From Escherichia coli (GTDB lineage: Bacteria; Pseudomonadota; Gammaproteobacteria; Enterobacterales; Enterobacteriaceae), in the NCBI RefSeq assembly GCF_003991155.1, contig NZ_CP031293.1: DNA of 64,000 nt; one strand, 5' to 3'. The position numbers and the translations under genes are program-made. This document shows positions 9,010-42,022 of the stretch, piece after piece. The notes under the pieces were generated by a model. That model was not told the origin of the DNA. It worked only from the letters and a program-made list of their open reading frames with translations, and ran no database searches. Each line of letters starts with the position of its first letter. Positions within the stretch are counted from its first letter, which is position 1.

Positions 9010-9135
9010 AAGCGTCTCCTTTACCATAGTTAATGTCACCGCTTGATATGAGCGTGAAAATCACTCAATGCGATATTTTTAGTGTGGTGCACATCGCGCC
9101 TCCCGACAAAGTTCGGGAGGACGAATTACGACGAA

Positions 9136-9741
9136 TTACTTAGTTTTCAGATCATTTTTAACGCTTTTCACACCATCTACCGCTTTGGCGATACTTTCAG
9201 CACGGTCACTTTGTGCCTGAGAATCTACGGTACCGGAGAGCTGAACCACACCATCGGTGGTTTCAACTTTCACTTTACGTGAAGGGACAATGTCATCCGC
9301 CAGCAGTTTGGCTTTGATTTCACTGGTGGTGGCGGTGTCACCCGCGTAGCCCTTCACAGAGCCTTCTTTAGCGTCGCGAACGTGCAGTTTGTCGCTGACA
9401 GAGGTCACCCCTTCAACGCCTTTCGCCACTTTCACTGCTTCTTCGGCCTGGGCCTGGCTTTCAACGAAACCGCTCAGGGTCACGACTTTTTGATCGGTTT
9501 TGACAGAGATATCGGTGCTCTTGATGTTGTCATGATCCACCAGGGCCGCCTTCACTTTCGCGGTGATGGCGCTGTCATCCATGAAATTACCGACTTTATT
9601 CATAGAGCTATCGACTTTTTGCCCTGCGCTTTCATTGGTAGTCTGCGCGTTGTTTTCTGCGTAGGCAGAGCCGGTCGCGACGGCAGAGGTCAACATTACA
9701 GCCAGCAGAGTTTTCGAAATCTTCAGTCTTGTCATAGTCAT
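9136..9741 (-). CDS. osmY: Osmotically inducible periplasmic protein OsmY (two BON domains)
   Basis: ORF 9136..9819; internal start [28 protein letters not shown] gives a signal peptide and a 201-aa product. Confidence 0.9.
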
Positions 9742-10133
9742 CGATTTATTCCTGTATGTTTGCTCGTAATTTGAGCCTGGCAACACGAGGTTGCATTGCT
9801 GAATAGGGAGAGACTTCACCCTCTACAGAAGTCAATGGTCGCCATCACAAAAGCGATGGGTGATGAATAACGACCATTACAGCCTCTGAATCAGTTATTA
9901 ATATCGGTAGAATGACAATCGACGGCTTTAGATACTGATATCTACGCATTGAACGGTATTTAACGCCGTCAGAAATGTCATTACTTTGTTAAATATAGAT
10001 CACAATTTTGAAACCGCTCGGGATATCCCCTAAAACATAAGCAAAAGTGAATGTTTTAAGAACATTCCGTAAGCGGCTAATAAGGAAGGGAAATTGACAG
10101 GGCGCAGCGGCTACCGCGCCCTGGAGGCTAGAA

Positions 10134-11723
10134 TTAATGCTCGCGGGTCTGGTGGAACTGAACGTCCGGATAACGTTCCTGCGCCAGGCGCAGATTGACC
10201 ATGCTGGTAGCGATGTAAGCGAGGTTATCGCCGCCATCAAGCGCCAGTTGGCTTTCGTTCTTACGCTTGAACTCTTCGAATTTCTTCGCGTCCGCACATT
10301 CTACCCAGCGGGCGGTGGCAACGTTGACTGACTCATACACTGCTTCAACGTTGTATTCGCTCTTCAGGCGCGCTACCACCACATCAAACTGCAGCACACC
10401 AACCGCGCCAACGATCAAATCGTTGTTGGAGATCGGACGGAACACCTGCACCGCGCCCTCTTCGGAAAGCTGTACCAGCCCTTTGAGCAGCTGTTTTTGC
10501 TTCAGCGGATCTTTCAGGCGGATACGACGGAACAGTTCTGGCGCGAAGTTCGGAATACCGGTGAACTTCATCATCTCACCCTGGGTAAAGGTGTCGCCGA
10601 TCTGAATGGTGCCGTGGTTGTGCAGACCAAGGATATCGCCAGGATACGCTTCTTCAACGTGCGAACGGTCACCCGCCATAAAGGTCAGCGCGTCGGAGAT
10701 CACCACATCTTTCGCAGTACGCACCTGGCGCAGCTTCATGCCTTTTTCATATTTACCGGACACCACACGCATAAACGCCACGCGGTCGCGGTGTTTCGGG
10801 TCCATGTTGGCCTGAATTTTAAATACGAAGCCGGTAAATTTGTCTTCGCTCGCCTCTACGGTACGGGTATCAGTCTGACGCGGCATCGGCGCTGGGGCCC
10901 ACTCCACCAGGCCATCCAGCATATGATCAACGCCGAAGTTACCCAGCGCAGTACCAAAGAACACTGGAGTAATTTCGCCCGCAAGGAACAATTCTTTGTC
11001 GAACTCGTTAGACGCGCCTTTCACCAGTTCCAGTTCGTCACGCAGCTGCTGTGCCAGATCTTCACCAACCGCAGCGTCGAGATCCGGGTTATTCAGCCCT
11101 TTAACAATGCGGACTTCCTGAATGGTGTGGCCTTTACCGCTCTGATAGAGATAGGTTTCATCTTTATAAAGGTGGTAAACGCCTTTAAACAGCTTGCCGC
11201 AGCCAATCGGCCAGGTGATCGGTGCGCAGCCGATTTTCAGCTCGTTCTCAACTTCATCGAGCAGTTCCATCGGGTCGCGGATATCACGGTCAAGTTTGTT
11301 CATAAAGGTGAGGATCGGCGTATCGCGCAGACGGGTAACTTCCATCAGCTTACGGGTACGATCTTCAACACCTTTTGCAGCGTCGATAACCATCAGGCAG
11401 CAGTCCACCGCAGTCAGGGTACGATAGGTATCTTCCGAGAAGTCTTCGTGCCCCGGGGTGTCGAGCAGGTTAACCAGGCAATCGTGATACGGAAACTGCA
11501 TCACAGAAGTAGTAATGGAGATCCCACGCTGCTTTTCCATCTCCATCCAGTCCGACTTAGCGTGCTGGTTGGAACCACGGCCTTTTACTGTACCGGCGGT
11601 CTGAATGGCCTGTCCGAACAGCAGCACCTTCTCGGTGATGGTAGTCTTACCGGCGTCCGGGTGAGAAATAATGGCAAAAGTGCGGCGCTTCGCCACCTCT
11701 TGCAAATAAGGAGACAACGTCAT
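10134..11723 (-). CDS. prfC: Peptide chain release factor 3 (GTPase)
   Basis: ORF 10134..11750; translational GTPase motifs [12 protein letters not shown] and DTPGH; internal start [14 protein letters not shown] gives 529 aa. Confidence 0.93.
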
Positions 11724-27858: not shown

Positions 27859-29523
27859 TTAAAACGTTTCCCAGTTCTCCCCGCTATCTGCCACGGCCAT
27901 TTTACGCGGCGTAGCTGGCGTCACGGTTTTTACCACAGCCGATGTTTCACGCTGATGTTGCTGCTGTTGCTGAATCCGGAACACTGCCACAGCTTCGGTC
28001 AGGCGACTGGCCTGCTCTTCCAGCGCGGCAGCGGCGGCGGCAGATTCTTCCACCAGCGCGGCGTTCTGTTGAGTTACCCGGTCCATCTCAGCAACCGCTA
28101 ATCCAACCTGATCGATACCACGGCTCTGCTCATCAGAAGCAGAAGCAATTTCGCCCATAATGTCCGTCACGCGGGTCACGGCACTGACAATCTCTGCCAT
28201 GGTTTCCCCGGCGCTTTCGACCAGCGTAGAGCCAACATCTACTTTCCCCACCGAGTCTTCAATCAGGCTTTTAATTTCACGAGCCGCCTGAGCGCTGCGC
28301 TGGGCCAGATTACGCACTTCACCCGCGACCACCGCAAAACCGCGCCCTTGCTCACCCGCGCGCGCTGCTTCAACCGCCGCGTTCAAAGCGAGAATATTGG
28401 TCTGGAAGGCAATGCCGTCAATTACGCTGATAATATCGGCGATTTTCTGCGAACTGGTGGAGATATCGCGCATAGTCTGCACCACGTTATCTACCACTTT
28501 GCCGCCGCGTTGCGCCGTTTCAGAAGCACTTAACGCCAGGTGGCTGGCCTGGCGCGCATTTTCGGCGTTCTGCTTCACCGTTGCGGTCAGTTGCTCCATG
28601 CTGGCTGCCGTCTCTTCCAGCGAAGCGGCCTGTTGCTCGGTGCGCGAAGAGAGATCGTTATTGCCGGTAGCGATTTCGCTGGCACCGCTATAGATGGCAT
28701 TGGCCCCGTTGCGCACATCACCGACGGTACGCATCAGCTCTCCCTGCATATGGCGCAAACTCTCAGCCAGTTGCCCCATCTCATTAGAGCCATCCACCTC
28801 AATCGGTTTCACCAGATCGCCGCCTGCAATATGACGAATGCTGTCAATCAGGCGATTCATTGGCGCTACCAACGAGGCTTTAATACCGAACCAGACGGCG
28901 AAGATGACCGCCAGTACGACGATCATCACGCCCACCAGAATCCACATCGCCTGGCTGTAGGAGGCATTATTATCGCTGACGGCGATATCATAGAGCCGAT
29001 CGTTTTGCTCCATGTAAGCCACATACTGCTTCTCGAAACCGTCCTGATATCCCTGGGTCGGCTGATCAAAGAACTCGTTGATTTTGCCTGCACCTAACAG
29101 TTGGATCAGCTCCGCCAGCGCATTGTGATAAATATCGTAATTTCGTTTGATCTCTGCCGCTGCGGCGGTGCTCTGACGCGGGTCACGCGGCAACGCTTCG
29201 TAATCCGCCCAGTTTTTTTCCGCCTGTTTCAGCGAAATACTGGCACTCTGCATCAGCTCAGCAACGGTTGAACCGCTACCAATATTATTCTGATCCATCA
29301 TGTAGCGGATACCCGCGCGGTTGAGGGTGTTACGCGTCTGCAACAACGCGACCCAGCTGCCATTCAGCGTGGATTGCTGCTGGCGAATGGTTTGTAAAAC
29401 AGTGAAATTTTCTTTGTCATTCTTTAAGGCATTAAAGAACAGACCGCCTGATGTCAGTTGTAAAAGGCCAAAAACGGCCAAAACCAGCAGTAAGCTGGTC
29501 ACGATCTTGATACGTTTTAACAT
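27859..29523 (-). CDS. tsr: Methyl-accepting chemotaxis protein I (serine chemoreceptor)
   Basis: ORF 27859..29538; product from the internal start [19 protein letters not shown]... is 551 aa; HAMP and MCP signalling domains; C-terminal NWETF pentapeptide. Confidence 0.93.
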
Positions 29524-29581: not shown

Positions 29582-29662
29582 TGCTGTGGAAAAGCGTCGG
29601 CACTGCTTTTGTTGCAGCAAACTTGCGTTTTTTGTGAGGGTCACACTCTATAGCGGCAGTTT

Positions 29663-30568
29663 ATGGTACAAAGTATCAATCTTCTTCGAACCAGTGATAC
29701 TCCTATGGCTTATAGCATCGATATCATCTCCTGCATTACCGAACGGTTTATGGCGTTAACAGCCACTGAAAAGCGTATCGCACAATTTATTCTTGATGAC
29801 GTCTCTGCCGCAGTAGAGTTGCCAATTGCTGAGCTGGCACGGTTAACGCAAACCAGTCAGGCGTCGGTGACGCGTTTTGCCCGTGCACTGGGGTGCAAAG
29901 ATGTCCGCGAGTTGAAAGTCAAACTGGCGCAGTCACTGGCTGTCGGGCAGCGGTTTATTCTCGATGTACCGGATCTTGACGGTGTTCAGGGGATCTACGA
30001 AGCGATTATTAGCGTGCTGGAGACGCATCGTCGTTCGCTGGATATGAATGCCATCAGCCAGGCTGTAAGCTGGTTAAGTCAGGCGCGGCAAATTCTTGCG
30101 TTAGGAACTGGCGGCGGTTCCACTATCTGTTCACAGGAGATTCAGTACCGTTTATTCCGTCTGGGGCTACCGGTGGTCAGTCAGAATGATGCCCTGATGA
30201 TGAGAATGATGTGCTCGGCAGTCATGCCGCAGGATGTGGTGATTGTGCTTTCGCTGGGCGGTTATACACCGGAAATCATCGAAAGTGCGGCAATCGCCCG
30301 TCAGTATGGCGCGCGTGTTATTGCCATTACGCCAGCACAAACACCGCTGGCGGAACAGGTGGATCTGGTATTGCCGTTACTGGTTCAGGAAAGTGATTAC
30401 ATCTTTAAGCCCACCCCTTCCCGCTACGCGATGTTAGCCATGGTCGATGTACTGGCAACAGAACTGGCAATGGCAAATAAAGCGCAGGCGAAAGATCGCC
30501 TGCGGCGGATAAAACTCGTGTTAGACAGCCACCGTGGGGGCGCTAACCGCCAGCCACTTGGCGATTAG
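29663..30568 (+). CDS. RpiR/MurR-family transcriptional regulator (HTH plus SIS sugar-phosphate-binding domain)
   Basis: 301-aa ORF (start may be internal, about 29705); HTH region TEKRIAQFILDD...ELARLTQTSQASVTRFARALG; SIS-like motif LGTGGGS. Confidence 0.75.
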   Translation: MVQSINLLRTSDTPMAYSIDIISCITERFMALTATEKRIAQFILDDVSAAVELPIAELARLTQTSQASVTRFARALGCKDVRELKVKLAQSLAVGQRFILDVPDLDGVQGIYEAIISVLETHRRSLDMNAISQAVSWLSQARQILALGTGGGSTICSQEIQYRLFRLGLPVVSQNDALMMRMMCSAVMPQDVVIVLSLGGYTPEIIESAAIARQYGARVIAITPAQTPLAEQVDLVLPLLVQESDYIFKPTPSRYAMLAMVDVLATELAMANKAQAKDRLRRIKLVLDSHRGGANRQPLGD

Positions 30569-30577
30569 CATTGTCGG

Positions 30578-32047
30578 TTATGCTTCTTCAGGTTTGGTGA
30601 TCACGACACTCTGGTTTTCACGCTCATTGGTGATAATAGCCAAAGCTTCTTCCCGGCTGACCTGACTTGCTGGCGTTACCAACGTCACCAGTACGCCAGC
30701 GACCAGGCTGCCCAGCACTGACGGAATACACGGGTTACCCCAGTAAGCCAGCCAGTCGGCATTCATCAGCACCACAATTGACATCACCATACCGCTCACT
30801 AACGCCGCCAGCGCGCCCTGCCAGTTAAAGCGTAGCCAGAAGCGACCGAGAATCGAGCAGATAAACAGCCCGGACATCAGCATCGAAATCATTTTGGTAA
30901 TGTAGCTGATGATGTCATTAGAGGTCAGAGCAAAGACCAGCGCCAGGCCAATAACAAAGGTCAACATCCAGCGTGAGTAAGTAATGGCCTTGTCCTCCGG
31001 CGGCATTCTGCCGGTAATCATGGTGTAGACGTCGCGCATCATAATCGCCACCGCCGCGATGGCATCGGAGCTGGCAGAAGACATGGTGGCTGAAAGCCCG
31101 GCAATCAGCACCACCAGCCCAAGAATGGCAGGTAAGAAACTGGTCGCGAACAAGAAGGCGTAGTTGCTGTTTTCCAGATTTGGGTTCATGGTGAACGCCG
31201 CCATGCCGATAATGGCAGGCAAAATCGAGAAGAACAGATATAACACCCCAGTAATAACAAACGAACGGCGTACAGAGGGAACATCTTTACCCGAGTAAAT
31301 ACGCTGGCGATAAGACGGTGTGGCCAGTACGCCGACACCAATAACCAGCGCCAGCGAAAGCGCAGGTAGAACGCCCATTTTATCAATCGCAAACAGGCTC
31401 ATCGCTTTTGGGTCCATCGCCTGTTCAATCGCACTCCAGCCGCCAACGTGAACAACGGCGAGAATAGCCATCAATATAAAGCCAAAGAACAGAATTAAGG
31501 CCTGAATGGTGTCTGTCCACACTACCGCCGAATAACCGCCGATAATAACGTAAATCGCAAAAGCTAAGGCGATAATTAATTTTGCTACAGTAAGATCAAT
31601 ACCTGTTGCCCAGGCAAGATACATACTGCCACCTAATATATGCGCCCCCAGCCAGCCAATAGAGGCAATAAATATCATCAGGCCGACAATATTTTTAATT
31701 AAATGACTCCCGCCAGTATAATAAGATATTTCTTCACTCATGGTCATAAAACGTAATTTACGTACCGGTGCAAACAGCCACGCCACCAGTAATATACCTA
31801 CGGCCCCACCGACGCCATAAAGCATTCCGGCCCAGCCATTGCTGTAGCCAAAGCCCACGGCGCCCATACTGGAACCCGTGCCAACCATCGTGGCAACGGT
31901 TGAGCCCAGCGTCAGAAACAGCGGCAACGAACGCCCGCCCAGCAGAAAATCTTCTCCGCTTTTCTGATTACGAGACACAAACCAACCAAGCCAAATCATG
32001 GCGATGGCATAAATAATAAAGCCGACTAAAAAGATATGACTGTTCAT
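30578..32047 (-). CDS. Sodium:solute symporter (SSS) family transporter
   Basis: 489 aa, highly hydrophobic, SSS-like N-terminus (GGRSLPLFLTLGSTVATMVGTGSSMG). Confidence 0.75.
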   Translation of the reverse strand: MNSHIFLVGFIIYAIAMIWLGWFVSRNQKSGEDFLLGGRSLPLFLTLGSTVATMVGTGSSMGAVGFGYSNGWAGMLYGVGGAVGILLVAWLFAPVRKLRFMTMSEEISYYTGGSHLIKNIVGLMIFIASIGWLGAHILGGSMYLAWATGIDLTVAKLIIALAFAIYVIIGGYSAVVWTDTIQALILFFGFILMAILAVVHVGGWSAIEQAMDPKAMSLFAIDKMGVLPALSLALVIGVGVLATPSYRQRIYSGKDVPSVRRSFVITGVLYLFFSILPAIIGMAAFTMNPNLENSNYAFLFATSFLPAILGLVVLIAGLSATMSSASSDAIAAVAIMMRDVYTMITGRMPPEDKAITYSRWMLTFVIGLALVFALTSNDIISYITKMISMLMSGLFICSILGRFWLRFNWQGALAALVSGMVMSIVVLMNADWLAYWGNPCIPSVLGSLVAGVLVTLVTPASQVSREEALAIITNERENQSVVITKPEEA

Positions 32048-32149
32048 AATTCACATCCTGCCAGTAGAGAGAGAATAAAGTAAGAGTTCCCGGAGTGCTG
32101 AATGTATTCAGCACTCAATTGCGGTCTATTTTTTTAATTCTTAAATTTA

Positions 32150-32539
32150 TTAGCGGGTCGCGTTATAACAGGTCACATCGACTTCAACTTTACAATCGAC
32201 AACCAGATCAGCTACACAACAAATACGTGCAGGCGGATTCTCGCCAAAAAATTCTCTGAATACTTTATTAAATGACTGGAAATAGCGGGCGTCGGTCAGG
32301 ATCACTTTCACGTGAACCACATCCGCCAGGCTATAACCGGCTTCAGTCATGATGTCGACACAGTTTTGGATCGCCAGTCGTGACTGTTCAACGATACCGC
32401 CTTCTACCACTTCACCGTTTTTCATGGGGGTTTGCCCGGAGACGTACAGCCAGCCGCCCGCCTCAACCGCCCTGGCAAACGGCAAATGCTGCCCGCCAGT
32501 GCCTGTTCCACCTTCCGTACCGTAACGTTTAATACTCAT
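32150..32539 (-). CDS. RidA/YjgF-family reactive-intermediate (enamine/imine) deaminase
   Basis: About 129 aa; pattern ...VSGQTP...AGYSLADVVHVKVILTD...PAR... typical of RidA family. Confidence 0.7.
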   Translation of the reverse strand: MSIKRYGTEGGTGTGGQHLPFARAVEAGGWLYVSGQTPMKNGEVVEGGIVEQSRLAIQNCVDIMTEAGYSLADVVHVKVILTDARYFQSFNKVFREFFGENPPARICCVADLVVDCKVEVDVTCYNATR

Positions 32540-32548
32540 ATTCACTCC

Positions 32549-34000
32549 TTAATGTGAGGTCTGGCGGCGCAGGAAGCGTCCCGCACGGCCTGTAATATGT
32601 TTATCGGGACCATAGCTCATAACGCCGTTCACCATCACCGCCTCAATGCCATCTGCCGGGCGTTTGGGATCAGAAAAGCTGGCAACATCACGAATGGTTT
32701 GTGGATCGAACAACACCAGGTCCGCAAAATAGCCGACTTTCACCAGCCCACGCTGAGGCAGACGAAAACGGCTGGCAGAAAGCCCGGTCATTTTGTGGAT
32801 AGCCGTGGTCAGTGGGAATAAGCCTTCATCACGGCAATAGTGACCCAGCACGCGAGGGAAAGCGCCCCATAAACGCGGATGCGGCATGGGATCATTGGGC
32901 AGTCCGTCAGAGCCAATCATACTGACCGGATAACTCAACACTCGGCGGACGTCGCGCTCGTCCATGTTGTAATAGATAGCCCCGGCAGGCATCAGCAACT
33001 TCGCGGCCTCCAGCATACTCATCTGCCAGTCGATGGCGATTTGCGCCAGTGTTTTCCCGGCCTGCTGCGGATGTGTTTGTGACCAGGTGATCACAATATC
33101 GAATTCGTCGGTGACTTGTTTGAGATCCAGCGTTGAAGAGCTGGCTGAGTAAGGGTAGACATCGCAGCCAATTTCCTGGTGTTGACGCATTTGGTCAAAA
33201 AAGGCCAACGTTTCTTTTGTCCGCCCCCAGTTTTTCGCCCCGGCGCATTTATGGTGGGAAACCACGACAGGCACTTTGCCATGACGCCCAATACGAAACG
33301 CCTCATCCAGGGCATCGAGAATCGGTTCAAATTCAGAACGCAGATGGGTGGTATAAACGCCCTTCTCACCGGCTAATTCTTCCGCCAGCGCCATGACTTC
33401 TTCGGTAGTCGCCTGAAATGCCGTTGCATAGGCCAGCCCGGAACTTAACCCCAGCGCCCCCTGACTCAACGCCAGACGTAAGTCGGCACGCATAGCGGCA
33501 ATTTCATCCACCGTCGCCGGGCGAAACAGGTCGTCCATATGGTTATTACGCAGCGCCGTATGACCAATCAGCGTGCCAACGTTCAGTGACGGCCTGGCTG
33601 CTTCCACTGCCTGGGCATAGCTTTCAACGGTAGGATAAATAAAGTGCTCTGCTTCCCCCAACAGATTCATCGGGTCAGGAACTTCACCTTTCATTTTCGC
33701 CGACGCCGCACTAATCCCGCAGTTACCGACAATCACCGTAGTGATCCCCTGGCTGATCTTTGGCAGATATTCCGGGATGCGAATAACGTTGATATCGTCA
33801 TGGGTATGAACGTCGATAAACCCTGGTGCCAGCACCCGCCCTTCCCCGTCAATGACCTGCTGCGCCGTAACGTTAAGCGCAGGGGCAATATCGACAATCC
33901 GATCACCTGTTATTGCCACGTCACCGCGAAATTCAGGGCCGCCGCTACCGTCGATAACGGTCACATTTTTGATTAACCAGTCAACCTGCATGTTCGTCAC
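32549..34000 (-). CDS. N-acyl-D-amino-acid deacylase (D-aminoacylase), amidohydrolase superfamily
   Basis: 483 aa; N-terminal IKNVTVIDGSG...APGFIDVHTHDD metal-binding motif characteristic of D-aminoacylases. Confidence 0.75.
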   Translation of the reverse strand: MTNMQVDWLIKNVTVIDGSGGPEFRGDVAITGDRIVDIAPALNVTAQQVIDGEGRVLAPGFIDVHTHDDINVIRIPEYLPKISQGITTVIVGNCGISAASAKMKGEVPDPMNLLGEAEHFIYPTVESYAQAVEAARPSLNVGTLIGHTALRNNHMDDLFRPATVDEIAAMRADLRLALSQGALGLSSGLAYATAFQATTEEVMALAEELAGEKGVYTTHLRSEFEPILDALDEAFRIGRHGKVPVVVSHHKCAGAKNWGRTKETLAFFDQMRQHQEIGCDVYPYSASSSTLDLKQVTDEFDIVITWSQTHPQQAGKTLAQIAIDWQMSMLEAAKLLMPAGAIYYNMDERDVRRVLSYPVSMIGSDGLPNDPMPHPRLWGAFPRVLGHYCRDEGLFPLTTAIHKMTGLSASRFRLPQRGLVKVGYFADLVLFDPQTIRDVASFSDPKRPADGIEAVMVNGVMSYGPDKHITGRAGRFLRRQTSH

Positions 34001-34191
34001 TCCATTTCTGCAATGGTGACAAGTTAACCATTTACAAGGACGAAAAACAGTGGAAAACTACGCAAAACCCAGATGATTTTATGATACTTTTATTCATAAA
34101 TAATAAGATAAATAAACTAAATATTTATATTTCATTTAGTTACAAATGATACTCACATCCGATACGGTGAAAAACTTAAAAGGTAAATGTT

Positions 34192-35412
34192 ATGAAATAC
34201 CACTCAGAACCTCTGGTTCCCCATAAATCTGCCCTGATGCAAATGCCCGCAAATCTCCTTGCCGAAGATGTCTGTTTACCTGCCGCGATCATTAAAAAGC
34301 AGGCCCTGGAGAACAACATTACGTGGATGCAACGCTACGCTGACGCGCGCGGCGTTTCACTGGCACCGCACGGTAAAACCACCATGACGCCGTGGATTTT
34401 TCAGGCGCAGCAGGCGGCTGGTGCCTGGGCAATAGGTGTCGGTAGCGCATGGCAGGCTGGTGCGGCAATGGCGAGCGGTATTCAGCGAGTGCTGATGGTT
34501 AACCAGCTGGTCGGCAAGGCGAATATGCAGTTGATTGCCCAGTTGCAACGACATTACCCGACGGTCGATTTTATCTGCTGTATCGACAGCATTGAGAACG
34601 CCCGCGCTTTGTCTGCCTTTTTTGCCAGTCAGCAACAGACACTGAACGTGATGATTGAGTTGGGTGTCCCCGGCGGGCGCTGTGGTTGCCGCTCAAGGGA
34701 TGCCGCACTGACACTGGCTAAACAGGCAGCCCAATTACCGGGGTTACGCCTGCGGGGGCTTGAGTTATATGAAGGCGTTTTACACGGTGACGCTCCACAA
34801 CCGCAGGTAGAAGCTCTGCTGCGGGATGCCGCACAACTGGCCTGTGATATGGCAAGTCTGGTTGATGGCGAGTTTATTCTCACCGGAGCAGGCACGGTCT
34901 GGTATGACGTGGTGTGCAATATCTGGCTGGCGGCAGAAAAGCCTGATAACTGCCGCATTGTTATTCGCCCTGGCTGCTACATCACTCACGACACCGGGAT
35001 CTACGACGCGGCACAACAACAGTTGCTTGCCCGTGATCCTGTGGCCTGCGATCTGGCAGGCGATCTCACATCTGCGCTGGAACTGGTCGCCATGGTGCAA
35101 TCGGTGCCGGAAGCTGATCGTGCGGTGGTAAATTTTGGTAAGCGTGATTGCGCCTTCGACGCCGGACTGCCGCAACCAGTCGCCCACTACCGCAACGGCA
35201 AATCACTGGCATTTGATCCACAGGCGATTCGCAGTACAGGTATTATGGATCAGCACTGCATGTTGCAACTGTCAGCTAATAGCGACGTGCAAGTGGGGGA
35301 TATTCTGGTGTTTGGCACATCGCATCCGTGCCTGACCTTCGACAAATGGAAAACGTTGTTATTGACTGATGACGACTACAACGTACTGGCAGAATTAGAC
35401 ACTCTCTTCTAA
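34192..35412 (+). CDS. DSD1-family PLP-dependent enzyme (alanine-racemase-fold D-serine dehydratase / D-threonine aldolase-like)
   Basis: 406 aa; putative PLP-lysine motif LAPHGKTTM near the N-terminus; divergent from the deacylase gene. Confidence 0.65.
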   Translation: MKYHSEPLVPHKSALMQMPANLLAEDVCLPAAIIKKQALENNITWMQRYADARGVSLAPHGKTTMTPWIFQAQQAAGAWAIGVGSAWQAGAAMASGIQRVLMVNQLVGKANMQLIAQLQRHYPTVDFICCIDSIENARALSAFFASQQQTLNVMIELGVPGGRCGCRSRDAALTLAKQAAQLPGLRLRGLELYEGVLHGDAPQPQVEALLRDAAQLACDMASLVDGEFILTGAGTVWYDVVCNIWLAAEKPDNCRIVIRPGCYITHDTGIYDAAQQQLLARDPVACDLAGDLTSALELVAMVQSVPEADRAVVNFGKRDCAFDAGLPQPVAHYRNGKSLAFDPQAIRSTGIMDQHCMLQLSANSDVQVGDILVFGTSHPCLTFDKWKTLLLTDDDYNVLAELDTLF

Positions 35413-35536
35413 GAACGCCCCTTCGGTTAATTATCGAAGGGGCATTTTTATTGTGATCTCAATCACATATCCACCCGACGAATAATTCTTGCCCAACCGC
35501 TCACCGCCATTCCTGACCGCTTACATCCCTAAAATA

Positions 35537-35679: not shown

Positions 35680-37830
35680 ATGGATACTAAAAAGATATTC
35701 AAGCACATACCCTGGGTGATTCTCGGAATCATCGGTGCATTCTGCCTCGCGGTAGTTGCATTACGTCGGGGGGAGCACGTCAGTGCCCTGTGGATCGTGG
35801 TCGCCTCTGTGTCGGTGTATCTGGTGGCTTATCGCTACTACAGTCTGTACATCGCCCAGAAGGTGATGAAACTCGACCCCACGCGCGCGACGCCTGCGGT
35901 TATTAACAACGACGGTCTGAACTATGTTCCGACCAACCGTTACGTGTTGTTTGGTCACCACTTCGCCGCTATCGCCGGTGCTGGTCCGCTGGTTGGTCCG
36001 GTTCTCGCCGCGCAGATGGGCTACCTGCCTGGCACGCTGTGGCTGCTGGCGGGGGTAGTGCTGGCCGGTGCGGTACAGGACTTTATGGTGCTGTTTATCT
36101 CCTCTCGCCGTAACGGCGCATCTCTCGGTGAGATGATCAAAGAAGAGATGGGACCAGTACCGGGGACTATCGCGCTGTTTGGCTGTTTCTTAATCATGAT
36201 CATCATCCTTGCCGTCCTGGCGCTGATTGTGGTTAAAGCCCTGGCCGAAAGTCCGTGGGGTGTCTTCACCGTTTGCTCAACCGTACCGATTGCGCTGTTT
36301 ATGGGTATCTACATGCGCTTTATTCGTCCGGGGCGTGTGGGTGAAGTCTCTGTCATTGGTATCGTGCTGCTGGTTGCCTCTATCTACTTCGGTGGCGTGA
36401 TTGCTCACGATCCGTACTGGGGTCCGGCACTGACCTTTAAAGACACCACCATTACCTTCGCGCTGATTGGCTATGCGTTTGTTTCCGCACTGCTGCCAGT
36501 GTGGCTGATCCTCGCACCGCGCGACTATCTGGCAACCTTCCTGAAAATCGGCGTTATCGTCGGCCTGGCGCTGGGTATCGTGGTGTTGAACCCGGAACTG
36601 AAAATGCCTGCGATGACCCAGTACATTGACGGTACTGGCCCGCTGTGGAAAGGCGCTCTGTTCCCGTTCCTGTTCATCACCATCGCCTGTGGTGCGGTAT
36701 CTGGCTTCCACGCGCTGATCTCTTCCGGTACGACGCCGAAACTGCTGGCTAACGAAACCGACGCGCGTTTCATCGGCTACGGCGCAATGCTGATGGAATC
36801 CTTCGTGGCGATTATGGCGCTGGTTGCTGCGTCCATCATCGAACCGGGTCTTTACTTCGCGATGAACACCCCGCCTGCTGGCCTTGGCATCACCATGCCT
36901 AACCTGCATGAAATGGGTGGCGAGAACGCGCCGATCATCATGGCGCAGCTGAAAGACGTTACCGCACACGCGGCAGCGACCGTCAGCTCCTGGGGCTTCG
37001 TGATTTCGCCAGAGCAGATCCTGCAAACCGCGAAAGACATTGGTGAGCCTTCTGTCCTGAACCGTGCAGGTGGTGCGCCGACGCTGGCGGTAGGTATCGC
37101 TCACGTGTTCCACAAAGTGCTGCCGATGGCTGACATGGGCTTCTGGTATCACTTCGGTATTCTGTTCGAAGCCCTGTTCATCCTGACCGCGCTGGATGCG
37201 GGTACCCGTTCTGGTCGCTTTATGCTTCAAGACCTGCTGGGTAACTTCATCCCGTTCCTGAAAAAAACCGACTCTCTGGTTGCCGGTATCATCGGTACTG
37301 CGGGCTGTGTGGGTCTGTGGGGCTACCTGCTGTATCAGGGCGTGGTCGATCCGCTGGGCGGCGTTAAGAGCCTGTGGCCGCTGTTCGGTATCTCCAACCA
37401 GATGCTGGCAGCCGTAGCGCTGGTACTGGGCACCGTTGTGCTGATTAAGATGAAGCGCACCCAATACATCTGGGTAACTGTTGTTCCGGCTGTATGGCTG
37501 CTTATCTGCACCACCTGGGCGCTGGGCCTGAAACTGTTCAGCACCAACCCGCAGATGGAAGGCTTCTTCTACATGGCAAGCCAGTACAAAGAGAAGATTG
37601 CTAACGGTACTGACCTGACGGCACAGCAGATTGCCAACATGAACCACATCGTTGTGAACAACTACACCAACGCAGGTCTGAGTATTCTGTTCCTGATTGT
37701 GGTGTACAGCATCATCTTCTACGGTTTCAAAACCTGGCTGAAGGTGCGTAACAGCGACAAACGTACTGACAAAGAAACTCCGTACGTTCCAATCCCGGAA
37801 GGCGGCGTGAAGATCTCTTCGCACCACTAA
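35680..37830 (+). CDS. btsT: Pyruvate/H+ symporter BtsT (CstA family)
   Basis: ORF 35665..37830; large polytopic CstA-like membrane protein; probable start MDTKKIFKHIPW. Confidence 0.9.
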   Translation: MDTKKIFKHIPWVILGIIGAFCLAVVALRRGEHVSALWIVVASVSVYLVAYRYYSLYIAQKVMKLDPTRATPAVINNDGLNYVPTNRYVLFGHHFAAIAGAGPLVGPVLAAQMGYLPGTLWLLAGVVLAGAVQDFMVLFISSRRNGASLGEMIKEEMGPVPGTIALFGCFLIMIIILAVLALIVVKALAESPWGVFTVCSTVPIALFMGIYMRFIRPGRVGEVSVIGIVLLVASIYFGGVIAHDPYWGPALTFKDTTITFALIGYAFVSALLPVWLILAPRDYLATFLKIGVIVGLALGIVVLNPELKMPAMTQYIDGTGPLWKGALFPFLFITIACGAVSGFHALISSGTTPKLLANETDARFIGYGAMLMESFVAIMALVAASIIEPGLYFAMNTPPAGLGITMPNLHEMGGENAPIIMAQLKDVTAHAAATVSSWGFVISPEQILQTAKDIGEPSVLNRAGGAPTLAVGIAHVFHKVLPMADMGFWYHFGILFEALFILTALDAGTRSGRFMLQDLLGNFIPFLKKTDSLVAGIIGTAGCVGLWGYLLYQGVVDPLGGVKSLWPLFGISNQMLAAVALVLGTVVLIKMKRTQYIWVTVVPAVWLLICTTWALGLKLFSTNPQMEGFFYMASQYKEKIANGTDLTAQQIANMNHIVVNNYTNAGLSILFLIVVYSIIFYGFKTWLKVRNSDKRTDKETPYVPIPEGGVKISSHH

Positions 37831-39061: not shown

Positions 39062-39092
39062 GGCCGCCATGTGGCGGCCTGAATTATTTTTT
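39062..39092. terminator. Bidirectional hairpin terminator between convergent yjiA and brnA
   Basis: Inverted repeat GGCCGCCA/TGGCGGCC followed by a T-run (TGAATTATTTTTT). Confidence 0.6.
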
Positions 39093-39386
39093 GTTCTGAT
39101 CGCGCAGCATCGCTTCACGTAAAATTGCGTTCAGGCGAGTTTGATAGCCTTTACCTGGTCGCTTCAACCATTCCATCACATCAGAATCAATACGCACCGA
39201 GGCCTGAGTTTTCAATGGCCGATAAAACTTACCGCGTTCTGCGTTAGACCATTGCTCATCGCTGGAAGGTGGGATATCACTGTAATCAATATCTTCGTCG
39301 GATTTATTCGCCAGCGCCTTCAGTTCGGCCTCATGCTGCACATCGAGTGTAGAGGAGGTCCCTCGTTTATGTTTAACCATGCTCAT
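39084..39386 (-). CDS. brnA: BrnA-like antitoxin (COG3514 / DUF4415 family)
   Basis: About 100 aa from an internal ATG of ORF 39084..39527; motifs IDYSDIP and VRIDSDVMEWLKRPGKGYQTRLNAILREAM typical of BrnA; start overlaps the upstream toxin gene. Confidence 0.75.
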   Translation of the reverse strand: MSMVKHKRGTSSTLDVQHEAELKALANKSDEDIDYSDIPPSSDEQWSNAERGKFYRPLKTQASVRIDSDVMEWLKRPGKGYQTRLNAILREAMLRDQNKK

Positions 39387-39687
39387 AGCGATTCCTCTCT
39401 TTACGATCTGCTTTTCGTGCACTGATGATTCGAATAATTTCATTTCCGCTTTCGAAACGGATGGTATGCGCAACCAGAATAACCACGATGCCGTAAACCA
39501 GGCCGATTGTCTGCCAGCGATACTCACCGTTTTCTATGCGTTCTTGCTGTGACAAATGTTGTGGATCATCAAACACTAACACCGCATCTTCAAAGCGGAT
39601 GCCATGTTTCACCCGATTACTTTTGGCCTTGTTTGCATCCCATTCAAACTCCATTGGCATAGTTGCCATCCCTAATTGTATATACAA
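39373..39687 (-). CDS. brnT: BrnT-like toxin (COG2929 ribonuclease, RelE-like fold)
   Basis: 104-aa ORF (true start may be internal); motifs EFEWDANKAKSNRVKHGIRFEDAVLVFDDP and IRIISARKA typical of BrnT; toxin-first order with 14-nt overlap onto brnA. Confidence 0.75.
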   Translation of the reverse strand: MYIQLGMATMPMEFEWDANKAKSNRVKHGIRFEDAVLVFDDPQHLSQQERIENGEYRWQTIGLVYGIVVILVAHTIRFESGNEIIRIISARKADRKERNRYEHG

Positions 39688-39856: not shown

Positions 39857-41023
39857 GTGAAAAACTACAAAGTCATTACCCCGCTTTTTCCTACCTATGC
39901 GCAAGTTAAGGCTATGATGAAAGCCGTCTCAGGCTATTCCCTGAAAGCGGTGCGCAATATGATTACTGCCATTCACGAGCAAACCGGTACGCCGCAAAAA
40001 CCCGTTGACTGGTCAGAACCCGACCTGTGGATCAGCGAGCGCTTAACGGGTGAAGATGCCGACATCGCCCGTCGTATTTGGGATACCGATAATCACATCT
40101 TGAACCCGCGCCACAGCTACGGCTGCTACTTATTCCTCAACTATCCCCAGTTTGAGCTGATGGAAAGCACACCAGATGATATCTGGCAGCCCACCTCGCG
40201 CGGGCAAAAATTCCTGCAAGATGACGAAAAAACGCTGCGTTCACTGGACGACCAGGAAGGCATTCTGCAACTGCTTGAGCTGCTGGCTGGCCGGGAAATG
40301 TCGCGCCGCGCCGATTTATTGCCGGAATGGCAGGCCTTTTTGCATCAGCATTCGAAATTCGCGTCAGCAAGTTCAGTGAAAAGCACGCTCTACTCCCGTC
40401 TCTATAACCTTATCGACCGTGACATGGTTAACCGTGAAGGCATGAGCTATCGCATCACCGATACCGGGCGCGCCTGGCTTGGAAAAGCGTTGCCAGCACG
40501 AAAAAGCGATCCGCGTAAAGAGCTGTTGGAAGCGGTAAAACGCTATAACGAACAGCAAAAAGAGCTGCTGCGCGAACAAATCAGCACGATGAACCCGTAC
40601 AAATTTGAGCAACTGGTTGGTCAATTACTGGAAGCAATGGGCTACGAGCAGGTCGAAGTGACCAAAGCCTCAGGCGACAAAGGTGTGGACGTGATTGGTC
40701 AGGTGCAGGTCGGCATCACCACTATTACCGAAGTGGTGCAGGTCAAAAGAATGCAGAACACTATCACTCGCCCGTATATCGACCAGTTGCGCGGGGCGTT
40801 GCCTTACCACAAAGCCATTCGCGGTACGCTCATCACCACCGGGAAATTTGCGGCGAAATGTGCAGAAGCGGCGCTCTTTCCGGGTGCCGCGCCCATTACG
40901 CTTATCGACGGCGATCGTTTACTGGAACTGTTAATCGAAAATAACGTCGGCATTCGCCGCAGCAATGCAGTGGAATTGCTGGATGTGGATTTGCAGTTGT
41001 TTGATGAGCTGGAGATGGATTAA
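39857..41023 (+). CDS. Mrr-family (type IV-like) restriction endonuclease with extended N-terminal region
   Basis: 388 aa with GTG start; C-terminal Mrr catalytic-like core (NPYKFEQLVGQLLEAMGY...SGDKGVDVIG...EVVQVKR) and an Mrr-like C-terminal tail; N-terminal half about 80 aa longer than K-12 Mrr (304 aa, from memory). Confidence 0.7.
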   Translation: MKNYKVITPLFPTYAQVKAMMKAVSGYSLKAVRNMITAIHEQTGTPQKPVDWSEPDLWISERLTGEDADIARRIWDTDNHILNPRHSYGCYLFLNYPQFELMESTPDDIWQPTSRGQKFLQDDEKTLRSLDDQEGILQLLELLAGREMSRRADLLPEWQAFLHQHSKFASASSVKSTLYSRLYNLIDRDMVNREGMSYRITDTGRAWLGKALPARKSDPRKELLEAVKRYNEQQKELLREQISTMNPYKFEQLVGQLLEAMGYEQVEVTKASGDKGVDVIGQVQVGITTITEVVQVKRMQNTITRPYIDQLRGALPYHKAIRGTLITTGKFAAKCAEAALFPGAAPITLIDGDRLLELLIENNVGIRRSNAVELLDVDLQLFDELEMD

Positions 41024-41067
41024 AGGGCGAAATCTGCCGCCTCTACCATTACAATACGGAGTTCATC

Positions 41068-41244
41068 GTGGTCAAAGCACCAACTAAAAAAGCCAAAGCA
41101 AAGAAAAGCTCTGAAGAAACATTATGTGATACCACAAACCAATTTCGTGGTAGCGTTGAGTCCTCCGAATACAAGCACGTGGTGTTAAGCCTCGTGCTCC
41201 AGAAACTCATCAGCGATAAGTTTGAAGCACGCCGCAAAAAATGA
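41068..41244 (+). pseudogene. Type I R-M methyltransferase HsdM N-terminal fragment (about 58 codons, then stop)
   Basis: GTG start with GGAG RBS; translation ...LCDTTNQFRGSVESSEYKHVVLSLVLQKLISDKFEARRKK* resembles the HsdM N-terminal domain; ends at TGA within an A6 tract. Confidence 0.5.
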
Positions 41245-41903
41245 TTGCCGAAGCGTTAAAAGCTGATGGGATGGAAGAAATTTATTTTTCTGGCGACAAA
41301 AAAGCGGAATCTATCGATATTTTTGACGAAGATTATCTGGCGCGAATTAACAAGATCAAACTTCCAGCAACGAAGATCCTGTTATTACAAAAATTACTGG
41401 AAAAAGCGATCAGCGAGTTCAGGAAAGTGAACCAGTTGCAAGGGATTAACTTCACCCGCCGCTTCCAGGCGATTATAGATCGTTATAATGAGCGGCGAGA
41501 AGATGATGTACTCAACGGTGAAGAATTCGATACATTCAGTCAGGAAATGATTGATATTATCTATGATATTAAAACCGAAATGGGCACCTGGGCCGATTTA
41601 GGCATTGATATTGAAGAAAAAGCCTTTTTCGACATTCTTGCTCATATGCGCGATAAATATCAGTTCACCTATGACGATGAAAAAATGCTGTCACTGGCAA
41701 AAGAGATGAAAAGCGTTGTTGACAACACATCGAAATATCCTGACTGGAGTAAACGCGATGATATTAAAGCGAAACTGAAAGTTGAACTTATTCTGCTTCT
41801 ACACAAGCATAAGTTCCCGCCAGTAGCGAATGATGATGTTTATATGGGTGTGCTGGCACAGGCAGAGAATTTTAAAGAACATCATATGAGTGCTTTAAAT
41901 TAA
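41241..41903 (+). pseudogene. Type I restriction enzyme HsdR C-terminal fragment (DUF3387-like)
   Basis: 220-aa ORF starting at the ATGA overlap with the upstream fragment; motifs LGIDIEEKAFFDIL and ...LLLHKHKFPP... resemble the HsdR C-terminal domain as I recall it; no helicase/nuclease core present. Confidence 0.5.
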
Positions 41904-41910
41904 TTATGAA

Positions 41911-41936
41911 GGCCGGATACACTTTGTTATCCGGCC
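41911..41936 (+). terminator. Stem-loop (possible terminator) after the hsdR remnant
   Basis: 9-bp perfect inverted repeat GGCCGGATA/TATCCGGCC with 8-nt loop; no strong T-run. Confidence 0.4.
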
Positions 41937-42022
41937 ATTCTGAATTAACGTTAATTTCTCTTCCAGATCTTTCCAGTAACGCTTTTATTATTTTCTATTT
42001 TTAGCTGGACTTTCCCTGTATT

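Follow-up and report, generated by a model that had tools for sequence, protein, structure and literature searches.

What does the five-gene island between tsr and btsT of some Escherichia coli strains degrade, and how does it relate to pathways already described? We addressed this question in a 64,000-nucleotide stretch of E. coli DNA (RefSeq assembly GCF_003991155.1, contig NZ_CP031293.1), hereafter the window, in which five intact genes occupy the tsr–btsT gap over a span of 5.9 kb. An earlier note, made from the letters of the DNA and its open reading frames (ORFs), had suggested for positions 30578–35412 a route in which a symporter imports an N-acylated D-amino acid, a D-aminoacylase removes the acyl group, a pyridoxal 5'-phosphate (PLP) enzyme acts on the D-serine- or D-threonine-like product and RidA quenches the released enamine or imine, under control of an RpiR/SIS regulator. 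Four of the genes fill exactly this interval, whereas the regulator gene at 29705–30568 lies just outside its start. Homology, shared gene order and retained active-site residues lead us to propose, with a probability of roughly 0.8, that these five genes make up the core of an "ong" (oxidised N-acetylglucosamine) catabolic module. Its substrate is most likely an N-acetyl amino-sugar acid, either 2-acetamido-2-deoxy-D-gluconate (GlcNAc1A) or an epimer.

The five genes are arranged as follows:

29705–30568, plus strand: ongR-like regulator of the MurR/RpiR family with HTH_6 and SIS domains (PGAP start at 29705; the longest ORF begins at 29663)
30578–32047, minus strand: ongIT-like sodium:solute symporter (SSS; TIGR00813 match, 3.8e-49)
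32150–32539, minus strand: ongD-like RidA-family protein (TIGR00004 match, 3.3e-23; listed ORF 32150–32545)
32549–33991, minus strand: ongB-like metal-dependent de-N-acetylase, a subtype V amidohydrolase of the D-aminoacylase fold (listed ORF 32549–34000)
34192–35412, plus strand: ongC-like fold-type III PLP-dependent deaminase (ammonia-lyase), with Pfam domains PF01168 (Ala_racemase_N) and PF14031 (D-ser_dehydrat)

The ong cluster and its E. coli counterpart

The ong cluster of Pseudoalteromonas prydzensis ACAM 620 mediates the catabolism of GlcNAc1A, which derives from chitin oxidised by lytic polysaccharide monooxygenases (LPMOs), and in this marine species deletion and complementation showed that growth on GlcNAc1A requires each core gene (Jiang et al., Nat Commun 2022, PMC9537276). 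In vitro, OngB converts GlcNAc1A to 2-amino-2-deoxy-D-gluconate (GlcN1A), from which OngC yields 2-keto-3-deoxygluconate (KDG) and ammonia, and KdgK phosphorylates KDG to KDG-6-P; the authors likened the ong reactions to D-amino-acid degradation (PMC9537276). The scheme in the earlier note, comprising a symporter, N-deacylation, a PLP enzyme, RidA and RpiR control, is the one shown for this homologous cluster (PMC9537276). Its reaction logic was correct, since in formal terms the substrate belongs to the N-acetyl-β-hydroxy-D-amino acids.

As a reference we used the ong cluster of Pseudoalteromonas sp. ZZD1 (locus L081), the OngB of which is 92% identical to that of P. prydzensis (PpOngB), because the exact PpOngB sequence was found only on a 2.7-kb contig. 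Each protein of the E. coli island matches its ZZD1 counterpart over the full length, with identities of 44% for OngR, 58% for OngIT (over 473 residues), 84% for OngD, 54% for OngB and 45% for OngC (over 386 residues). The corresponding identities to Vibrio homologues are 51–55% for the regulator, 68–69% for the symporter, 85–86% for the RidA-like protein, 61–62% for the deacetylase and 44–46% for the PLP enzyme. Jiang et al. called an ong cluster where at least four ong homologues are co-located at E <1e-5 and identity >30% (PMC9537276); by this rule the island is an ong cluster, with five co-located homologues at 44–84% identity.

In Supplementary Data 3 of the same study, 13 E. coli strains are entered as "ong cluster +", as are E. 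fergusonii and an Escherichia sp.; these rows show consecutive ongC, ongB, ongD, ongIT and ongR and no lpmo, ongOT-1, kdgK or ongA, although E. coli is not discussed in the main text (PMC9537276). The presence of lpmo, ongOT-1 and ongA varies in other "ong +" genomes too (PMC9537276). Because the layout of these rows is exactly that of the five-gene island, its membership of the ong family is already on record, and the pathway is already known at the level of homology. The gene combination that the earlier note had not recognised was published in 2022, whereas its remark that the combination is uncharacterised in E. coli holds, as literature searches found no experimental work.

The E. coli island shares with the P. 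prydzensis cluster the five core components, the metal and sugar sites of OngB and the logic of an RpiR-type repressor, but differs from it in several respects. P. prydzensis additionally has a TonB-dependent receptor, the glycoside hydrolase family 20 (GH20) enzyme OngA, kdgK and an LPMO, none of which is present in the island. The gene order is C / B-D-IT / R in E. coli, with a divergent and a convergent junction, compared to C-R-B-D plus IT-kdgK-A in the ong reference. Moreover, the OngB pocket has Gly348 in P. prydzensis and Asn in E. coli, and the downstream enzymes are of the KdgK type in P. prydzensis but of the DgoK/DgoA type in the nearest relatives of the island.

Conserved synteny extends beyond E. 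coli. The five-gene set occurs in identical order in 10 of the 13 enterobacterial loci that we fetched, the remaining three being without the symporter, and the same order is found in K. pneumoniae and Serratia odorifera. In Vibrio and Pseudoalteromonas all five genes are also co-located, but differently ordered. The co-location of the five genes is not due to chance.

A sigma-54/DgaR-controlled pathway also employs a PLP-dependent ammonia-lyase, which degrades 2-amino-2-deoxy-gluconate to a keto-deoxy sugar acid phosphate. However, it begins with phosphorylation by the phosphotransferase system (PTS), uses an unrelated PLP enzyme and has no deacetylase, RidA or SSS transporter, and none of its genes lies within the E. 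coli island. The "D-glucosaminate degradation" reported for E. coli STc95 corresponds to MetaCyc PWY-7310, which we take to be this unrelated dga PTS pathway.

The deacetylase pocket and its specificity

It was the comparison of the deacetylase with solved structures that pointed to the ong pathway. Its matches in the PDB are the Klebsiella pneumoniae "Amidohydrolase family protein" (KleDacyl, 9G5M; 84% identity, 1e-281), PpOngB (9KB1; 54%, 4e-167) and the Alcaligenes D-aminoacylase (1M7J; 47%, 3.9e-136). It scores 560 bits against PpOngB, compared to 458 and 392 bits against true D-aminoacylases. The D-aminoacylase of Alcaligenes faecalis DA1 (AfDam, 1M7J) and the N-acyl-D-glutamate deacylase of Bordetella bronchiseptica (BbDam, 3GIP) share with the E. 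coli enzyme the fold, the Cys/His/His/Asp site and the residues that anchor the N-acetyl group and α-carboxylate, at no more than 47% identity. They differ from it in the side-chain pocket, which is hydrophobic in AfDam, lined by arginine (Arg295) in BbDam, and small and polar in the E. coli enzyme.

The solved complex of PpOngB with GlcNAc1A (9KB1/9KB3) separates the residues common to D-aminoacylases from those specific to OngB (Wang et al., JBC 2025, PMC12017989). The former comprise the Cys97/His222/His252 metal site, the catalytic Asp368, and the acetamido and carboxylate anchors Leu116, Tyr194, Lys254, Tyr285, Ser291, Leu370 and Arg379 (PMC12017989). The sugar hydroxyls are bound by Ser290, Ser292, Gln298 and Glu226, where D-aminoacylases have Thr at the Ser292 position and Leu or Arg at the Gln298 position, and Ala193, Ala256 and Gly348 of PpOngB stand in for hydrophobic Phe, Met and Met (PMC12017989).

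In a gapless alignment to PpOngB, 17 of these 18 functional residues are identical in the E. coli enzyme, the sole exception being Gly348, which is replaced by Asn (Asn342 of the 480-residue protein). The metal and catalytic set corresponds to Cys94, His219, His249 and Asp365 (numbered from the long ORF). Six of the seven residues that distinguish OngB (Ser290, Ser292, Gln298, Glu226, Ala193 and Ala256) are retained, and the specificity loop is almost identical, reading YPYSASSSTLDLKQVTDEFD in E. coli and YPYAASSSTLDLNQVTDDFD in PpOngB. By contrast, the pocket of true D-aminoacylases (Phe191, Met254, Leu298, Met346 and Thr at position 292) is unmatched, as the E. coli enzyme has Ala, Ala, Gln, Asn and Ser, respectively. 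The OngB signature is present in all 80 related loci, which are the best 80 from a scan of genome contigs and include no Pseudoalteromonas. Asn occupies position 348 in all the Enterobacterales, Paraburkholderia and Achromobacter homologues examined.

About 60 Pseudomonas loci from dozens of species (among the fetched loci L013–L077, around positions 9100–11440) carry an ongR-ongB pair with the full OngB signature and have no ongC or ongD within 10 kb, with the exception of P. entomophila (L040).

The OngB-specific pocket residues separate enzymes of opposite specificity. PpOngB and two homologues deacetylate GlcNAc1A only and cleaved no N-acetyl-D-amino acid tested, whereas two reference D-aminoacylases act on N-acetyl-D-amino acids and are inactive on GlcNAc1A (PMC12017989). 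OngB showed little or no activity on N-acetyl-D-serine or N-acetyl-D-glutamate (PMC9537276). N-acetyl-D-serine or -threonine, which the earlier note proposed to try as substrates, are not supported by these results, given the OngB-type pocket of the E. coli enzyme.

The chief support for a literal N-acyl-D-amino-acid route comes from KleDacyl (9G5M/9GV8), published as a general D-acylase for biocatalysis, which is the sole biochemical datum for the enterobacterial OngB subfamily (PMC12149444). It cleaves the N-acetyl derivatives of D-Met, D-Phe and D,L-Trp but not the L-forms of Met, Phe and norvaline (PMC12149444). On N-acetyl-D-Met it has a Km of 32 mM, a kcat of 90 min-1 and a kcat/Km of 2.8 min-1 mM-1 (~47 M-1 s-1), within an overall range of 19–32 mM for Km and 1.5–2.8 min-1 mM-1 for kcat/Km (PMC12149444). 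This very weak activity is ~30-fold below that of PpOngB on GlcNAc1A, 1.6 mM-1 s-1 (PMC12017989). The KleDacyl report neither mentions GlcNAc1A nor considers the genomic context of the enzyme (PMC12149444). Its gene (fetched loci L082/L083, 10001–11440) sits within an ong-type cluster, and the protein has the OngB-specific pocket residues. The K. pneumoniae cluster shares with the E. coli island the order ongC / ongB-ongD-ongIT ... ongR and the proximity to lgoT/lgoR/lgoD-like genes, and differs from it by a DGOK-family kinase and a DgoA-type aldolase added between ongIT and ongR. In our reading, the D-acylase activity of KleDacyl is a promiscuous side reaction of an OngB-type enzyme. As a physiological assignment, general D-acylase is probably wrong because of the ong-type cluster, the OngB pocket residues, the weak activity on N-acetyl-D-amino acids and the silence of the report on GlcNAc1A.

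Degradation of ordinary N-acyl-D-amino acids such as N-acetyl-D-serine, -threonine or -methionine by a D-aminoacylase and a D-serine dehydratase would fit the activity of KleDacyl, and also the in vitro deamination of D-serine and D-threonine by OngC (PMC9537276). Nevertheless, the replacement of the hydrophobic pocket residues, the inactivity of PpOngB and its homologues and the low efficiency of KleDacyl make this explanation very improbable. In addition, an RpiR/SIS regulator and kinases and aldolases for keto-deoxy sugar acids would make no sense for derivatives of serine or methionine.

The remaining components and a proposed route

The ongC-like enzyme has among its relatives in the PDB a "D-serine deaminase" (3gwq), D-threonine aldolases and D-threo-3-hydroxyaspartate dehydratase, yet it scores 340 bits against OngC compared to 67–100 bits against characterised dehydratases and aldolases. 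It shares with the DSD1-type family of D-serine dehydratases, D-threonine aldolases and D-threo-3-hydroxyaspartate dehydratases the fold-type III architecture, the D-ser_dehydrat domain and the PLP lysine motif: Lys62 in the segment "PHGKT" aligns to this motif in the solved D-threonine aldolases and D-threo-3-hydroxyaspartate dehydratase. However, OngC-type enzymes form a clade of their own, in which deamination of D-Ser and D-Thr is a side activity. The C-terminal segment contains an "SHPC" motif (His378/Cys380), a His-x-Cys arrangement that may correspond to the zinc site of the chicken and yeast DSD1-type enzymes. The enzyme is predicted to turn 2-amino-2-deoxy-hexonate into 2-keto-3-deoxy-hexonate and ammonia.

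The RidA-like protein retains the arginine of the "PAR" motif and is predicted to act as an enamine/imine deaminase on the product of the PLP enzyme. In P. prydzensis, ongD is required for growth on GlcNAc1A, although the biochemical role of OngD is unproven (PMC9537276). The symporter, by its similarity to OngIT, is predicted to be the inner-membrane importer of the amino-sugar acid.

The transporter varies among related clusters. The clusters of Enterobacter sp. Ag1, Cedecea neteri and RIT693 (fetched loci L009, L010 and L018) are without an SSS symporter, and in Andreprevotia (fetched locus L075, 7750–9093) a gluconate-type transporter of the GntP family is encoded between ongC and ongR, as would suit a sugar acid.

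The regulator is predicted to be the repressor of the cluster, as was shown for OngR in P. prydzensis (PMC9537276). Its top NCBIfam match is HexR (8.3e-59, 199 bits, under the cut-off of the model). HexR senses 2-keto-3-deoxy-6-phosphogluconate (KDPG), a phosphorylated keto-deoxy sugar acid. The effector of OngR-type proteins could be an intermediate further down the route and not the imported substrate. Two non-coding elements accompany the genes:

33992–34191: divergent control region between ongB and ongC, from intergenic alignment and a promoter scan
35417–35443, plus strand: intrinsic-terminator-like hairpin with an 11-pair stem (7 G-C) and a T-run, directly 3' of the ongC stop codon

Three blocks of the control region (about 34082–34096, 34043–34067 and 34023–34038) are almost invariant among 15 ongC-ongB intergenic regions of Enterobacterales, the remainder of which has diverged. 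The motif GTATCA(T) occurs twice in this intergenic region, and a promoter-like site was found on the minus strand at 34173–34146. The blocks and the promoter-like site are candidate promoters or a candidate OngR operator; no convincing operator palindrome was found within the conserved blocks.

Altogether, we propose the following route, in which, for E. coli, all of the biochemical steps are inferred, as are the epimer that is used and the hand-over to a kinase and aldolase of the host. The OngIT-like symporter would import a 2-acetamido-2-deoxy-hexonic acid, by homology most likely GlcNAc1A, from which the zinc-dependent OngB-like amidohydrolase would strip the acetyl group to give a 2-amino-2-deoxy-hexonate, a β-hydroxy-D-α-amino acid. 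The OngC-like enzyme would then catalyse α,β-elimination of the β-hydroxyl and amino group, and the RidA-like OngD might speed the hydrolysis of the resulting enamine/imine to ammonia and 2-keto-3-deoxy-hexonate. The host enzymes KdgK and Eda, or DgoK and DgoA, would complete the route to pyruvate and glyceraldehyde-3-phosphate; they would be needed because the island has no kinase or aldolase. The OngR-like protein would repress the divergent ongC and ongB-D-IT units from the region 33992–34191 until the substrate is present. As the window contains no LPMO, GH20 OngA or TonB-dependent receptor, E. coli would scavenge monomer made by other organisms.

The end product of this route would be a 2-keto-3-deoxy-hexonate entering an Entner–Doudoroff or De Ley–Doudoroff branch, rather than pyruvate from serine. 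Overall, the observation behind the earlier note is confirmed and its interpretation partly supported.

Substrate epimer, retention and meaning for E. coli

Related clusters differ in the enzymes that follow OngC. Eight of the 13 Enterobacterales loci, together with K. pneumoniae and Serratia odorifera, carry a DgoK/DgoA-type pair between ongIT and ongR. The kinase belongs to the DGOK family (Pfam PF05035, 4.4e-90; no NCBIfam match), and the aldolase scores 302 bits on the model of the 2-keto-3-deoxy-6-phosphogalactonate (KDPGal) aldolase compared to ~120 bits on Eda models. In Vibrio clusters the kinase is instead a PfkB-type KdgK, which scores 368 bits on the corresponding model, and the aldolase is Eda; those of Andreprevotia and P. 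entomophila have KdgK. Representative pairs lie at the following positions of fetched loci:

L001, 13476–14973: kinase and aldolase pair
L082, 13526–14984: kinase and aldolase pair
L086, 11437–12892: kinase and aldolase pair
L059, 13867–15443: pair of the Vibrio type, for comparison

Since orthologous clusters encode kinases and aldolases for 2-keto-3-deoxy-hexonates or a GntP sugar-acid transporter, they fit a sugar-acid substrate and not a simple amino acid. Jiang et al. scored the enterobacterial kinase and aldolase genes unevenly, as "kdgK" in some rows and "-" in others (PMC9537276).

The type of kinase and aldolase may report the epimer, because the OngB and OngC reactions leave C4 untouched; a DgoK/DgoA pair would then imply 2-keto-3-deoxygalactonate (KDGal) as product and N-acetyl-D-galactosaminate as substrate. 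The enterobacterial subfamily, including the E. coli island, might thus be specialised for the C4 epimer in an undescribed pathway from N-acetyl-D-galactosaminate via D-galactosaminate to KDGal. DgoK and DgoA would then complete the degradation of KDGal. Klebsiella, Leclercia and Serratia encode them within the cluster, whereas E. coli would draw on its chromosomal dgo operon; canonical dgoA is present in 5,021 of 5,426 complete genomes of this species. The specificity would be partly switched by the exchange of Gly348 for Asn in OngB. When 15 loci of the DgoKA type are compared to six of the KdgK type, just two columns of the OngB alignment separate them perfectly, one of which is position 348, with Asn in the former and Gly or Cys in the latter. 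The Asn type is not one clade in a neighbour-joining tree, and the equivalent Asn342 of KleDacyl directly contacts a glycerol molecule that occupies a polar region connected with the catalytic cleft (PMC12149444).

Several observations stand against this specialisation. All residues of PpOngB that contact the C3–C6 hydroxyls are unaltered in E. coli, and by chance one of two discriminating columns would coincide with one of ~18 functional residues in ~8% of cases, so that the coincidence is only suggestive. Serratia odorifera, which carries an LPMO according to Jiang et al. (PMC9537276), has a cluster of the DgoK/DgoA type. The DgoK/DgoA pair of Paraburkholderia is accompanied by its own IclR regulator and by sugar dehydrogenase and ABC transporter genes, and may be merely adjacent. 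Moreover, the island of E. coli encodes neither a kinase nor an aldolase, and a natural source of N-acetyl-galactosaminate is not documented in the literature searched. We therefore treat the galacto epimer as a tentative and rather doubtful substrate; GlcNAc1A has about an even chance, and other substrates take the small remainder. An argument that counted Asn348 and the DgoK/DgoA pair as two independent co-occurrences was dropped, as the Paraburkholderia pair belongs to a neighbouring IclR-regulated sugar-oxidation cluster.

The assignment of the island to the ong module has to be weighed against several points. No experimental study of an enterobacterial ong cluster turned up in the literature searched, and identity of OngC to the characterised lineage is just 45%. 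There is no LPMO, OngA homologue or KdgK in the window, and ongOT-1 is absent from the E. coli rows of Supplementary Data 3. The closest relative with biochemistry, KleDacyl, cleaves N-acetyl-D-Met, -D-Phe and -D,L-Trp (PMC12149444). Finally, the closest orthologous clusters are of the DgoK/DgoA type rather than the KdgK/Eda type and position 348 of the pocket holds Asn in place of Gly, so that the substrate may not be GlcNAc1A itself.

The borders of the island are as follows:

27859–29523, minus strand: tsr, left flank
29584–35496: extent of the island by comparison with E. coli K-12, from blastn of the K-12 spacer against the window
35680–37830, plus strand: btsT, right flank

The tsr–btsT spacer of K-12 measures 377 bp, of which 135 bp are exchanged for window positions 29584–35496; in blastn the flanks align to K-12 at 94–97%, ending at 29583 and resuming at 35497. 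A survey of 5,426 complete E. coli genomes found the whole island in 193 of them (3.6%, ~1 in 28). The ORF list and the RefSeq annotation of the island contain no integrase- or transposase-like ORF; border tRNAs and repeats were not searched for. The cluster adjoins tsr in Leclercia and lies near the lgoT/lgoR/lgoD-like genes in Klebsiella, which suggests that the island is an old enterobacterial locus, retained by some lineages and lost from others, and not a classical mobile island.

Further downstream, beyond yjiA, the window contains a brnA/brnT toxin-antitoxin pair (39084–39660) and a gene for a 388-residue Mrr-like restriction protein (39857–41023), where K-12 has a 304-residue mrr directly after yjiA. 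This region is the variable immigration-control region, and its GC content falls to 0.40 at 41000–42000.

Lacking a dedicated kinase and aldolase, outer-membrane uptake and an oligomer hydrolase, the E. coli island could be a functionally incomplete remnant that confers no usable phenotype and is being lost. Its low frequency would agree with this, as would the window without LPMO, OngA or KdgK and the result that the in-cluster dgoK'/dgoA' pair of relatives is absent from every one of the 5,426 E. coli genomes, in which only canonical dgoA was matched, at ~71% DNA identity. Neither a kinase nor an aldolase is present in the island, and the window contains no kinase. However, all five reading frames are uninterrupted and full-length compared to their homologues, and copies that are 100% identical occur in many genomes, with isolates from human, cattle, chicken and water. 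In addition, Franconibacter and Shimwellia retain the same five-gene form, and dgoK/dgoA are found elsewhere in the E. coli genome. The kdgK and eda genes are core genes of E. coli, located elsewhere in its genome, and porins pass monomers of such size. We consider a decaying remnant improbable.

For the biology of E. coli, this implies that ~1 in 28 complete genomes may belong to strains that can obtain carbon and nitrogen from a scavenged oxidised amino-sugar acid, which would originate from chitin-oxidising neighbours or possibly from oxidative chemistry. The general understanding of such pathways is unchanged by the island. Novelty is likely to come from the DgoK/DgoA variant with Asn348 and from the probable misassignment of 9G5M: the published structure, described as that of a general D-acylase, is most likely a member of the sugar-acid deacetylase family. 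Of all the elements of this locus family, the split between DgoK/DgoA and KdgK/Eda is the only one able to lead to new biochemistry.

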